Below, one piece after another: positions 428-4,106 of a stretch of DNA of 64,000 nt. Numbering within the stretch: position 1 is the first letter of the stretch; every line of letters starts with the position of its first letter. The notes under the pieces were generated by a model. That model was given only the letters and a program-made list of their open reading frames with translations. It made no database searches and was not told the DNA's origin. Position numbers and translations under genes: made by a program. This DNA is from a virus: the IMG/VR virus record IMGVR_UViG_3300032893_000002, positions 110,668 to 174,667 of that record; one strand, 5' to 3'.

Positions 428-1309
428 TCACCGTAAGGTCCTGAAACGATCTCCAACATGCCGAACAAAATCTACAAAATCTGGACGAGTTTGAATATTT
501 TCTTGCCAGCAAAGACCTAAGTCAATTAAGTTGTATGTTTCTACTATCCTTGCGCCTTGGATAATATTTCCTGCGGCGTCTCGTTCATAACCTAGTAACC
601 AGAGGTGATCTGCAACAGATGCAACTGCGTGAATATCATGACTAATAACTATAACTGTATTTAAGTCATCCATGCAGGCAATATCAGCAATAAGCTTATT
701 CACCTTTTCAAGCATCACTAAATCTAAACCTGAATAAGGTTCATCCATAAGCAGGAAGTGTTCACTGCATAGTAGTTGCTGAATAATCGCTATTCGCTGT
801 CTTTGTCCGCCTGAGAGATTGGCAGGATAGGAATGGCTATATCCTTCCATTCCGAGCGATTTAAGATAGAATTCTATTTTGTCCTTTCGCTCATTCTTTG
901 GATATTTTTTCGATGCTGCCAGCATCAGATTGCCAAAGATCGTTCTATGCTCAAACAAAGTGTAGCTCTGAGCTACAACACCAACCATCCCTGCCTGAAC
1001 TAATTCGTGTTTGGAGTTCACATAAACTCCGCCACTTGTCGGTTTATTTAATCCAGCAATAATTCTAAAAAGCTGTGTTTTCCCAATGCCACTTGGGCCG
1101 AGAAAGCCGACAACTTGCCCCTGAACATGGCAGCGTCGATGTACGTCCTTTATCGTAGCATTGACATCACGAAGGACTATGTGATCTCCATATTTTAAAT
1201 TTACGTTTTCAATTGAAAGTAAAGTGTCGCCTTCTGTTACGCAACCTGCGCAATCTGTTGAATATGTGCAATGCTCCATACTATTTTCTCTCCAGTAGAA
1301 GACTCGCAT
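428..1309 (-). CDS. ABC transporter ATP-binding protein (NitT/TauT-type importer ATPase)
   Basis: Walker A GPSGIGKT, ABC signature LSGGQRQR, Walker B LLMDEP; about 290 aa, typical of a single-domain ABC ATPase. Confidence 0.85.
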   Translation of the reverse strand: MRVFYWRENSMEHCTYSTDCAGCVTEGDTLLSIENVNLKYGDHIVLRDVNATIKDVHRRCHVQGQVVGFLGPSGIGKTQLFRIIAGLNKPTSGGVYVNSKHELVQAGMVGVVAQSYTLFEHRTIFGNLMLAASKKYPKNERKDKIEFYLKSLGMEGYSHSYPANLSGGQRQRIAIIQQLLCSEHFLLMDEPYSGLDLVMLEKVNKLIADIACMDDLNTVIVISHDIHAVASVADHLWLLGYERDAAGNIIQGARIVETYNLIDLGLCWQENIQTRPDFVDFVRHVGDRFRTLR

Positions 1310-2063
1310 ACGGGCATACTATGTTCTTATATACACCAATAATGTAATCTTGCGATACGCCCACAGCGACTACAAGCAATTGAATTGCGCCTATAGACGC
1401 TAAGTTGAAATGTTTATCCATGTCTGCTAACGTTACTCCTATACCTCCTTCGCCACGGAAAAGAGCTTCAACCATCGGTAACATCGCCCAGCCCATTGCG
1501 CTGTTTTGCCTAACAGCATCAATCATAAAATCAATTCTACCTAACACTTCCACTTCCCAAACAATTTGCCAATTATTCATTCGCAGTGTGCGAGCAAGAT
1601 CATACTTTTCTTTTGGGATCTCTTCTATAATATCAACCATACTTTTCACAGTAAAGGTTGAGATTAGAAACGTCAGCATCGCTATTTTTCTTATATGTTC
1701 GCTGCCGATGAAGATTGTAAATAGGAAAGGCATTCCGACAGTTCCAAGAAATCTAAGTTTCTGCCAGAATAGCGCTCCTGGTTTGAGAAACAGAATAGAA
1801 GCTCCGTACGAAATCAAAAGCGAGAATATTGTAGATGTAAATAGAACTTGAATATAGAGAATGAGACTCTTATACAAAGCCTCAGCTAATCCTTCTCCAG
1901 CCAAACTCCCAAATGCCAAACTAATTTCATGCGGTTTTGGAAGAAGGGCGGGAGCGGCCAGCTCCCATATTGCTATTGCGGCCACTCCCTGAAGAACGAA
2001 CAGTGTTTTTAGAGACGATCTTGACCATGCATTGGATGGAGCAAATACATCTTGTATTGTCAT
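1281..2063 (-). CDS. ABC transporter permease (binding-protein-dependent inner-membrane component)
   Basis: Polytopic hydrophobic 260-aa protein overlapping the ATPase gene; EAA-like loop ARTLRMNNWQIVWEVEVLG as in BPD_transp_1 permeases. Confidence 0.6.
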   Translation of the reverse strand: MTIQDVFAPSNAWSRSSLKTLFVLQGVAAIAIWELAAPALLPKPHEISLAFGSLAGEGLAEALYKSLILYIQVLFTSTIFSLLISYGASILFLKPGALFWQKLRFLGTVGMPFLFTIFIGSEHIRKIAMLTFLISTFTVKSMVDIIEEIPKEKYDLARTLRMNNWQIVWEVEVLGRIDFMIDAVRQNSAMGWAMLPMVEALFRGEGGIGVTLADMDKHFNLASIGAIQLLVVAVGVSQDYIIGVYKNIVCPYASLLLERK

Positions 2064-2288
2064 TTGGTCTCAGTCTTTTTCCATTCTGCGTCGAAAGCTG
2101 TCGTGATTTTTTCGACGAGGGCGAAAATTGTTTTGTAGAGCCTGACGAAGCTAGTTCCGGTTTTTGTTGTCACTTCGTCTCTCCAGTGAGGAAGAACTTC
2201 TAACAGGAGATGGCTAAAAGATTTGTAGACATGGGAGTGCGTTCCATGCACACTCCCATCTACAGTCGTTACAGTTAACGTAATTGTT

Positions 2289-4106
2289 TTACTGGGCAAG
2301 GATGACCTCCACGCGCCTATTCTGCGCTCTGCCTGTTTCTGTTGAGTTGGATGCGATTGGTTTGTCAGGACCGTAGCCATGAACACGAAAACGTTCATCA
2401 GGAAATGATCCTGGTGCTGCTGCTTTTAATGCTTGTTTCACTGCTTGTGCGCGGGCAAGCGACAGCTTCCGATTTAAATCTGGATTACCGGTATTGTCTG
2501 TATGCCCGTTTAGAACGATCATCAATCCTGTCAGTGCAGCTTGATCTTTGATCGAATTGACTGTAACAATTCCAGTCGGAGTCAATTGTGCAGATCCGGT
2601 CGCAAATTCGATGCTGACATTCTTGTCGCTGACAACATCGTTTACCTGCGTTTCTGCTGAGTACTCCGGAGCATCTGCCTGCGAGCCTGTATTTTCCATC
2701 AATGCTCTTGCTTGCAACAGATATGAGGTATCTGTTACTTGATCGAATGAAGGAATTGGCGCATCCTTAAACAGATTCGGATACTGTTCTGATACAAGCT
2801 TCGCAAACGTTGAGTACGTATTGCGGGCATTGTTGTTACTCTTGCCATCCAATCCAAACAATGCCAAAGCATCGTTCATGTTGTCAGCATAGGAACCGCC
2901 AAGGCGTACGGGCCTACCTGTGGCATCATTTTCAGTGACGCCGTTGTAGTATTTCACCCAATATGCGCCATTCGATTCTTCGCCGCATTTCTGTGCTGGG
3001 TCAGAGCAGTAGATCTTTGCGCTGATATCGCCAGCAAGTTTCTTTGCTTCAGGAAATGCTTTTACCTGATCTCCGGCAGCAAGAATAGCTGCAAGCATTC
3101 CTTGTACTTCTTTTGCGTGCGCTTGATTCCACTTGTGAATACCAATAATCGCGCTCGGCATTTGCGAACGATATTCACGAGTTGTAACAATTGGAACCAG
3201 CCCGCCTTTCTTCATTGCGATATTGACATCTCCGGGCGTCCATGTCACAACGCCTTTTACACAGAAATTTTTCGTTTCTCCTGTGGGCTTTCCTTCCGGA
3301 GTCACAACCTTTCTATCTTCACAGTAGCCAGCAATATACTTTTGAGGAGCGTCGAGGTACGTATCTGCGTTTACCCAATTCACTGCGGTTGGGTCAAACG
3401 TATGGATATCTGGATTGCTTCTCAATCCATTATCTCCAATCCATTTTTGTGCAGAGTTCCAATCTCCATCTCCAATTACTCCGGCTACAAGACCATCGCC
3501 AAGTGCAGCTTTTGGATTCTTCTTCCACGCTTCAGGTCCCCAAAGGCCATCCTCTCCTCTGGAGTATCCTGAAGTGCCGATTTGCTCAGCATAACAATCC
3601 TTGCAAATCTTCTTTAACGTTGCATTCAGCGGAGCTAGAAATTGTCCCGCGCCGTCCATCATAATAGTTACGAAATGCACACCATTTGTACATTCCGTGG
3701 CATTTTTTAGGTCTTTTGCGCATGCTGCCAAATCGTTTCTATTCTGGTTTGTATCGTCCTGGCGAACGATATGCATGCAGACATTATACTTTTCCATCAA
3801 ACTGTTCTTTGTCGTATCAATGCCGCCATTTGCATAGTTGATTCCAATGCCGGCATTCCAAGCCCATTCCTCATAACGAATTGGGTCGGAGCAGCCATTC
3901 GGAACTGTTGTTGGATAAGGTGAAGGTTGGACATTTTCGACGAGAGCATCTTTGACTTCGGGCAAAGAAACTTTTGAAACTTGCACCGATTTTAAGATGC
4001 CAATGCCGTAATATGCCGCAACTCGGCTAATGCCGAATAGCAAGCCCACTACTACGGCTGCCAACAAAACGAGTTTGGGTAACGGTTTTAACTGAGCCAT
4101 TGTCAT
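2289..4106 (-). CDS. Membrane-anchored protein with C-terminal OmpA-like peptidoglycan-binding domain; possible substrate-binding component
   Basis: N-terminal TM/signal anchor. The C-terminal ~110 aa carries OmpA-C motifs (NGHTDNTGNPDLNRKLSLARAQAV ... RVEVIL). The ~400-aa middle domain is unassigned. It sits directly upstream of the ABC permease and ATPase. Confidence 0.65.
   Translation of the reverse strand: MTMAQLKPLPKLVLLAAVVVGLLFGISRVAAYYGIGILKSVQVSKVSLPEVKDALVENVQPSPYPTTVPNGCSDPIRYEEWAWNAGIGINYANGGIDTTKNSLMEKYNVCMHIVRQDDTNQNRNDLAACAKDLKNATECTNGVHFVTIMMDGAGQFLAPLNATLKKICKDCYAEQIGTSGYSRGEDGLWGPEAWKKNPKAALGDGLVAGVIGDGDWNSAQKWIGDNGLRSNPDIHTFDPTAVNWVNADTYLDAPQKYIAGYCEDRKVVTPEGKPTGETKNFCVKGVVTWTPGDVNIAMKKGGLVPIVTTREYRSQMPSAIIGIHKWNQAHAKEVQGMLAAILAAGDQVKAFPEAKKLAGDISAKIYCSDPAQKCGEESNGAYWVKYYNGVTENDATGRPVRLGGSYADNMNDALALFGLDGKSNNNARNTYSTFAKLVSEQYPNLFKDAPIPSFDQVTDTSYLLQARALMENTGSQADAPEYSAETQVNDVVSDKNVSIEFATGSAQLTPTGIVTVNSIKDQAALTGLMIVLNGHTDNTGNPDLNRKLSLARAQAVKQALKAAAPGSFPDERFRVHGYGPDKPIASNSTETGRAQNRRVEVILAQ

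Follow-up and report, generated by a model that had tools for sequence, protein, structure and literature searches.

The DNA analysed here is a stretch of 64,000 nucleotides from a virus (positions 110,668 to 174,667 of the IMG/VR virus record IMGVR_UViG_3300032893_000002), referred to below as the window. An earlier note on this window described a three-gene ATP-binding cassette (ABC) importer module at positions 428-4106. We confirmed that three open reading frames (ORFs) of this description lie there, co-oriented on the minus strand, and that the transporter genes are real. Two syntenic genes directly upstream had been missed, however, and they change the likely biology of the locus. The conserved unit comprises five genes rather than three and reaches to 5728; it occupies 428-5728 on the minus strand and is part of a tight array of minus-strand ORFs in the first 8 kb of the window. 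From gene 1 onwards, the elements of this cassette are as follows.

5162-5728, minus strand: coiled-coil protein, 188 aa, soluble (cassette gene 1)
4112-5149, minus strand: PspA/IM30/ESCRT-III-like protein, 345 aa, with an N-terminal hairpin of two transmembrane (TM) helices
2289-4106, minus strand: solute-binding and OmpA protein, 605 aa, bitopic, periplasmic
2224-2264, minus strand: RNA hairpin of 16 bp, from sequence and RNA folding
1281-2063, minus strand: ABC permease of the CmpB/NrtB (NitT/TauT) type, 260 aa, with an EAA-like loop
428-1309, minus strand: ABC ATPase, 293 aa from the first ATG; 283 aa from the probable start, Met11 at 1279

The two upstream genes are flanked by gaps of 5 to 14 nt. 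The transporter genes had been described as overlapping, which does not hold: the binding-protein and permease genes are 225 nt apart, and the 29-nt overlap between the permease and ATPase genes is gone when the ATPase starts at its second methionine, at window position 1279. This start was called, giving a protein of 283 aa, on a 99.4% identical metagenome contig (L167; JGI 3300032829, 4,836 bp), and Met11 is probably the true start.

The ATPase matches PF00005 at 6e-25 (88.8 bits, cut-off 25) and the phrog_293 family 'ABC transporter' at 2.8e-48. Its top NCBIfam matches are importer ATPases (PhnT2, CysA-type, ProV, PotA, NtrCD and TauB), and its top PDB matches are the nucleotide-binding domains of importers, including CmpD at 4e-26. 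The translation shows a Walker A motif (GPSGIGKT), a Q-loop, the signature LSGGQRQR, a Walker B motif (LLMDEP) and an H-loop (SHD), and the protein is of the short form, without a C-terminal regulatory domain. As a single sequence, the permease falls just below the gathering score of the Pfam family BPD_transp_1 (2.6e-5, 24.5 bits against 26.4) and has weak NCBIfam matches to ntrB and SaoP. When a profile of 12 family members was searched against 177,635 PDB sequences, it matched only CmpB (1.1e-7, over positions 26-252 of 261, nearly full length) and NrtB (5e-4). The permease has an EAA-like loop (YDLARTLRMNNWQIVWEVEVLG) that is conserved in the family alignment. These observations, together with those on the binding protein below, support the earlier assignment to the NitT/TauT type, a type I (binding-protein-dependent) ABC importer set for which nucleotide-binding, permease and solute-binding parts were all found. 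The fold class of all three parts points to import as the direction of transport.

The third cassette gene encodes a protein of 605 aa with the following parts.

aa 12-30 (nt 4017-4073, minus strand): TM anchor, a single N-terminal TM helix
aa ~70-470 (nt 2697-3899, minus strand): TauA/NrtA-type solute-binding domain, predicted to be two-lobed alpha/beta
aa ~490-605 (nt 2292-2639, minus strand): OmpA-like peptidoglycan-binding domain (PF00691)

The AlphaFold2 model of this protein, computed with 28 homologues, is of good confidence overall (pLDDT 83, pTM 0.81) and consists of the N-terminal TM helix, a disordered linker of low confidence, a two-lobed alpha/beta domain and the OmpA-like domain. 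That the C-terminus is a peptidoglycan-binding domain of the OmpA type, as the earlier note had it, is borne out by an above-threshold match to PF00691 at residues 501-597 (2.2e-15) and by the residues D537 and R552 of the peptidoglycan-binding motif (TDxxG...LSxxRA), which are invariant across the family. The middle domain has no Pfam match. The predicted structure places it in the NMT1/NrtA/TauA/SsuA fold and supports the suggestion of the earlier note that it could be a substrate-binding module; in sequence terms it stands as an orphan within the TauA/NrtA fold. In an exhaustive phmmer search of 1.84 billion representatives, it was found in just 402 clusters, nearly all of about 600 aa, indicating that it is almost always fused to an OmpA domain. 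The residues conserved in 18 maximally diverse members are W83, W216, W289, W383, D151, E185 and D186, and further D213, D215, D293, D412, N231 and N243 (full-length numbering). Most of them (those named apart from W383 and D412) are located at strand-to-helix junctions of the AlphaFold2 model, and in this binding-protein fold such junctions line the cleft. An aromatic and acidic site of this kind might be a better fit for an amine, cationic or heteroaromatic, than for nitrate, bicarbonate or a sulfonate. On contig L167, a 22-nt deletion at window positions 3270-3291 splits the gene into ORFs of 273 and 308 aa, and seven clustered mismatches to the window fall in the spacer at 2097-2120. The deletion might reflect either a loss of function that occurs in nature or a misassembly.

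The gene directly upstream encodes the 345-aa protein, whose TM helices at residues ~27-45 and ~54-72 form an N-terminal hairpin instead of an amphipathic membrane-binding helix. In the AlphaFold2 model, helices 101-160 and 164-248 make up a long hairpin, with pLDDT above 90 over residues 120-200, that is predicted to lie on the cytoplasmic side; confidence is low for the C-terminal third (residues 249-345). A Foldseek search with this model returned eight Vipp1 and two CHMP1B structures among the top twelve matches and PspA at rank 15 (E 1e-3 to 3e-2). At the sequence level, PF04012 was matched below its threshold by 7 of the 31 members of the family (best E 2.4e-5), and a bacterial orthologue scored 19.5 bits against it (cut-off 33.9). 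At bacterial loci of the Bryobacteraceae type, described below, the gene in the same position encodes a bona fide PspA, which exceeds the gathering score (3.3e-15), and hhalign aligned the 345-aa family with this PspA family at E 2.8e-4 and a probability of 41%. We consider it quite probable, judging from the models and the profile comparisons, that the 345-aa protein belongs to the PspA/IM30/ESCRT-III superfamily and that its TM hairpin replaces the amphipathic helix.

In the 188-aa protein the N-terminus is disordered and the C-terminal half helical; no hydrophobic or TM segment was seen, and its Pfam matches are to generic coiled coils only. Database searches gave just two homologues. Proteins at the same position in Acidobacteriota loci are 24-32% identical to it. 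Among 80 viral loci that carry the cassette (78 IMG/VR contigs and two JGI/Logan metagenome contigs), 36 have a homologue in this position with 26-30% identity to the window protein, and homologues in a low-GC viral group are 35-55% identical to the counterpart in LR756500.1. A second PspA/Snf7 paralogue was considered for this gene and rejected, as hhalign related the protein neither to PspA nor to any other protein of the operon.

The order coiled coil, 345-aa-like protein, binding and OmpA protein, permease and ATPase recurs in chromosomes of Acidobacteriota and of other bacteria. The Acidobacteriota carriers include contigs of 1.3, 4.0 and 6.6 Mb, on which genes for cysteinyl-tRNA synthetase and two-component systems are close by. 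Identities to the window proteins are ~30% for the coiled coil, ~33% for the PspA-like protein, 49-53% for the binding protein, ~42% for the permease and 55-65% for the ATPase. When the flanking ORFs of 52 bacterial loci were clustered, the five cassette families were the only conserved neighbours. In some bacterial lineages BLAST picks up only the three transporter genes. Loci of the Bryobacteraceae type (L075 11336-13949; L060, L061, L058 and L068) form a long operon, in which the bona fide PspA precedes the binding-protein gene and genes for a 300-aa protein and a 572-aa AAA ATPase follow downstream, matching an architecture published for Handelsmanbacteria.

Ravi et al. 2024 (mSystems, PMC11237479) predicted by comparative genomics a bacterial operon of PspA, a fusion of periplasmic binding protein (PBP) and OmpA domains, permease, ABC ATPase, TM-Snf7 and AAA+ genes, with OGG56892.1 of Candidatus Handelsmanbacteria as an example, and inferred from genomics a link between membrane remodelling and solute transport. 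The window cassette is a phage version of this type of operon, in which PspA is followed by the binding and OmpA protein, the permease and the ABC ATPase. Both have a PspA-family gene followed by a signal/TM, PBP and OmpA fusion, a permease and an ABC ATPase, all co-oriented, and the uncharacterised 'X' further upstream in the published operon has a positional counterpart in the 188-aa gene of the window. They differ in that the window copy resides in a phage genome, that the PspA-like protein of the window and of the Acidobacteriaceae-type and viral forms examined is itself anchored by a TM hairpin, and that these forms do not have the downstream TM-Snf7 and double AAA+ ATPase. In a tblastn search with the TM-Snf7 and AAA proteins of the Bryobacteraceae type, none of the 80 viral loci had a match in the 10 kb around the cassette. 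The window does encode, far from the cassette, a classic AAA ATPase of 590 aa (58600-60372, minus strand; PF00004, 3.8e-17) beside a 203-aa protein that reads as multi-TM (57964-58575, minus strand). We tried this pair as the missing AAA+ and TM-Snf7 genes and discarded it, since neither shows similarity to them.

That these are phage genes and not a host flank is supported by their composition and surroundings. The GC content at third codon positions (GC3) of the cassette is 0.34-0.42, within the range of the window (0.23-0.53, mean 0.31) and far from the 0.69 of the bacterial homologues; in other carriers it follows the local composition as well (0.10 in LR756500.1, 0.64 in L088). In the window, 114 of the 126 ORFs are on one strand, and the replication genes include RecA, a fusion of uracil-DNA glycosylase (UDG) and PolA, a clamp loader, a processivity factor, a primase and a phage single-stranded DNA-binding protein, along with an SbcD-like nuclease, HNH and GIY-YIG endonucleases, and QueC, QueF, FolE and DpdA-like genes. 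On contigs of 340, 99 and 93 kb, the cassette stands amid genes for thymidylate synthase, dUTPase, ligase, UDG-PolA, primase-helicase and RecA, in some cases with small ORFs inserted between permease and ATPase. In favour of host genes beside a prophage, or of a bacterial contig, are the nearest cellular homologues, which are ~50% identical, and the end of the window 427 nt beyond the ATPase. But those 427 nt carry small Cys-rich ORFs on the same strand, one of them at a GTGA overlap, and related contigs have phage genes on both sides of the cassette, so that a host flank or a bacterial contig is most improbable. The cassette is shown to have been resident in phage genomes for a long time.

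A scan of IMG/VR found the cassette in 78 contigs, 19 of them of 200-529 kb. Complete transporters may be rare in virulent phages as a rule, as the earlier note stated; this particular transporter is widespread. By tblastn, 77 of the 80 viral loci have the permease and 75 the ATPase; the PspA-like gene is present in 68. The GC content of the viral carriers ranges from 0.25 to 0.64, indicating that many different phage lineages and hosts are involved. A nucleotide search with window positions 1-8000 gave no match among GenBank phages; at the protein level, the 462-kb 'uncultured phage' LR756500.1 has the cassette at 32-37% identity. Flanks were examined in ten viral loci and look like those of phages in several of them; they encode RecD-like helicase, flap nuclease, PolB, ClpP, topoisomerase VI-B, glutaminyl-tRNA synthetase, DNA ligases, PARP and SNF2 helicase, or proteins with no Pfam match, and one locus (L117) is ambiguous. 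In a neighbour-joining tree, the window groups with the viral contigs L087-L089; this clade is sister to a mixed group including Acidobacteriaceae and 'gp2' Acidobacteria sequences, and bacterial clades are nested among longer viral branches. As the bacterial sequences are the best 80 of 383 matches and the distance method is crude, no conclusion on the direction of transfer between phages and bacteria is drawn from this simple tree. Acidobacteriota are no more than a reasonable guess for the host.

We argue, with a probability of roughly 0.6, that the cassette is a five-gene module of the phage for envelope maintenance and uptake that is used in long infections. In this proposal, the infecting phage would install a type I importer that takes up a small solute, and a polymer of the PspA-like protein would be set on the cytoplasmic face at the same membrane sites, keeping the inner membrane sealed and energised. 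The binding protein would be tethered to the inner membrane at one end and, via its OmpA-like domain, to peptidoglycan at the other. Together, the importer and the PspA-like polymer could let the infected cell retain a functional envelope over a long infection, and we infer that the cassette benefits the phage in this way. PspA owes its name, 'phage shock protein', to its induction in the host on phage infection; in the present case the phage itself encodes a PspA/ESCRT-III-like protein, in one unit with a complete ABC importer that is tethered to the cell wall, and the same unit recurs in dozens of viral contigs of up to 529 kb and of very different base composition. If the five genes do cooperate, large phages would take an active part in maintaining the inner membrane and the solute balance of the cells they infect, which would be a new class of host-takeover function, and the cassette would offer an experimental handle on an operon common in soil Acidobacteriota that has so far been interpreted from gene order.

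Several points weigh against this proposal. What suggests a coupling of the transporter and the PspA-like protein, physical or functional, is synteny only. The 345-aa protein of the window has no Pfam match at E values up to 1 and misses the gathering score of PF04012, and the Foldseek E values of ~1e-3 are weak, as is usual for long helical hairpins. For the middle domain of the binding protein, the profile search that the earlier note had called for matched THI13 alone among PDB sequences, at a non-significant E of 0.64; this is consistent with the fold, but without a significant sequence match to any solved binding protein the ligand cannot be transferred by homology. The pocket, too, is argued tentatively from the positions of residues along the predicted secondary structure, not from coordinates. 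Should the deletion on L167 be real, the binding-protein gene would be dispensable in some strains. Finally, some of the IMG/VR carriers may be bacterial or proviral, given that flanks were examined in about ten loci.

The alternative closest to the earlier note is that the importer is a plain auxiliary uptake module for phage metabolism and that the two upstream coiled-coil genes are unrelated neighbours. All three transporter parts are indeed of importer type, BLAST finds the transporter genes alone in some bacterial lineages, relatives of the fold carry heteroaromatic cofactor precursors (pyrimidine for ThiY, pyrroloquinoline quinone for PqqT), and the window has genes for NAMPT, a PRPP-synthetase-like protein and 7-deazaguanine modification. 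We nevertheless regard this explanation as unlikely. The PspA-like gene is directly upstream in 68 of the 80 viral and in most Acidobacteriota loci, and where BLAST fails a true PspA occupies its position; it is hard to see what an OmpA tether would do in simple nutrient capture; and no metabolic gene is conserved beside the cassette in bacteria. The substrates proposed before (nicotinamide, a pterin or queuosine precursor, or a sulfonate) and the link to the NAD and queuosine genes of the window find no backing, as the only conserved neighbours of the transporter genes are the two upstream genes. NAMPT lies 43 kb from the cassette in the window and within 10 kb of it in only 4 of the 80 viral loci, about what is expected by chance: in three it is paired with the PRPP-synthetase-like gene (L090, L101 and L121) and in one (L091) a NAMPT homologue stands alone, against a rough expectation of ~5 in 80 for one copy per ~300-kb genome. 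Linkage of the cassette to NAD salvage was dropped on these counts.

It is also conceivable that the binding-like domain, stretched between membrane and wall, is an envelope sensor or mechanotransducer that reports the envelope state or a periplasmic ligand, the ABC ATPase controlling assembly of the PspA-like polymer in place of the AAA+ protein of the longer bacterial operons. The double tether by TM anchor and OmpA-like domain, unusual for a binding protein, would make sense in such a device, as would the near-constant fusion of the middle domain to the OmpA domain and the absence of the TM-Snf7 and AAA+ genes from the Acidobacteriaceae and phage forms. However, the permease is a standard CmpB/NrtB-like subunit of a type I importer with its EAA loop, the ATPase holds every catalytic motif of a transport nucleotide-binding domain, the strongly conserved polar and aromatic residues at positions predicted to form the cleft fit true ligand binding, and no precedent was found for such signalling in this transporter family; we give this explanation little credence. 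A more ambitious version of the envelope-maintenance proposal, which we likewise hold to be a long shot, would make the cassette a widespread, anciently held, organelle-like envelope system of huge phages, in which an ESCRT-III-type membrane-repair polymer brought by the phage is coupled to an importer tethered to the wall. The imported solute would be cationic, for example a polyamine or quaternary amine, and would be required to stabilise the membrane or to condense very large genomes; the bacterial copies would perhaps be partly derived from phages. Very unlikely, in our judgement, is a device for lysis timing or superinfection exclusion that alters the periplasm and the linkage between wall and membrane. 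Phage-encoded membrane proteins often serve exclusion, and both the OmpA-like wall tether and a membrane-stabilising PspA-like protein act on the envelope; but hundreds of bacterial species have the five genes on their chromosomes, flanked by housekeeping genes, which indicates a cellular core function, and an ATP-driven importer would be left without a role. Models of defence systems match generic domains only: PADLOC gave generic ABC-ATPase and MotB/OmpA-domain matches and none for the permease, the PspA-like protein or the coiled-coil protein, a result on which we also set aside a known anti-phage defence system.

Comparison with other known systems is in line with a distinct arrangement. 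The binding domains of the cyanobacterial nitrate and bicarbonate transporters NrtABCD and CmpABCD are only 10-12% identical to that of the window, with no significant sequence match. These transporters have neither an OmpA domain nor a PspA partner, both of which are found in the window cassette, and the regulatory domain of their NrtC/CmpC-type ATPase has no equivalent in it. The conserved acidic and aromatic residues of the window domain would also be unlike the oxyanion site expected of Nrt and Cmp. In the TauABC and SsuABC systems of E. coli, TauA and SsuA are free periplasmic proteins of ~300 aa, whereas the window domain has ~400 aa, is doubly tethered and bears no detectable sequence relation to them. 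With PspA, Vipp1 (IM30) and ESCRT-III, the 345-aa protein would share the long alpha-helical hairpin, as Vipp1, PspA and CHMP1B are the best structural matches to its model; they bind the membrane by an amphipathic helix, and the window protein has a two-TM anchor. Jug phages, which are huge gut phages (PMC12880540 / PMC12363816), have a pspA-like gene next to terD that is transcribed in a small operon. They resemble the present case in that a huge phage carries a pspA-like gene, and differ in that no ABC transporter or OmpA fusion has been reported for them and that their hosts are Bacteroides and Phocaeicola. We found no paper on the cassette in phages, and both its distribution in phages and the TM-anchored PspA-like form without an AAA+ ATPase appear to be undescribed so far.

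Within the cassette, the 225-nt spacer between the binding-protein and permease genes contains the 16-bp hairpin, which begins 25 nt past the stop codon of the binding-protein gene. Folding of the RNA of 2064-2300 gave a z-score of -2.9, and 1 of 200 shuffled sequences folded equally well. The hairpin was not called by a simple terminator scan, and consensus scans for promoters and terminators gave no more sites than in shuffled sequence. It may be an attenuator or an mRNA stabiliser that lifts the output of the binding protein relative to the membrane subunits.

On the 3' side of the ATPase gene, positions 1-512 (minus strand) hold two small Cys-rich ORFs with CxxC motifs; the start of one overlaps the stop of the ATPase gene (GTGA), and the other is truncated at the window start. 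Directly upstream of the cassette, a 177-aa gene (5743-6276, minus strand) is a paralogue (E 4e-19) of a 236-aa protein encoded 50 kb away (56045-56755, minus strand), which by eye appears to have a hydrophobic insert between the two homologous parts. Neither paralogue has a Pfam or PHROG match, and they are not conserved with the cassette in other loci.

Elsewhere in the window, the NAD salvage pair at 48160-49032 and 49029-50606 (minus strand) encodes NAMPT (PF04095, 1.5e-27) and a PRPP-synthetase-like phosphoribosyltransferase. DNA polymerase A at 20632-23133 (minus strand) has an N-terminal domain of the uracil-DNA-glycosylase family, and the same fusion occurs in the related contig L087. 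GIY-YIG genes at 7256-8041 and 29595-30359 and an HNH gene at 10117-10701, all on the minus strand, are scattered in the replication region. A full gene set for 7-deazaguanine DNA modification, dispersed among the replication genes on the minus strand, consists of QueF-like (12799-13209), DpdA-like transglycosylase (27451-28548; phrog_887, 1.8e-41), GTP cyclohydrolase I (29012-29650) and QueC (33575-34297) genes.

Two further proteins of the window recur near the cassette in other viral loci. One is an HD_4 (RelA/SpoT-like HD) protein at 60698-61162 (minus strand), 56 kb from the cassette, with homologues of 36-49% identity within 10 kb of the cassette in L005 (13670-14143), L089, L102, L103 and L116, that is, in five viral loci besides the window, or six counting the duplicate of L005. 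The other is an 881-aa protein at 30414-33059 (minus strand) with a major-vault-protein (MVP) shoulder domain (PF11978, 4.6e-21) and a Vault_3 repeat, which has no PHROG match and no PDB sequence match. An MVP-like protein is unusual in a phage. The shoulder domain has a fold related to that of SPFH/band-7 proteins, and a partnership with PspA has been reported for band-7 proteins. In L123, a 45% identical MVP-like homologue (4312-6699) lies ~2 kb upstream of the solute-binding protein gene of the cassette.

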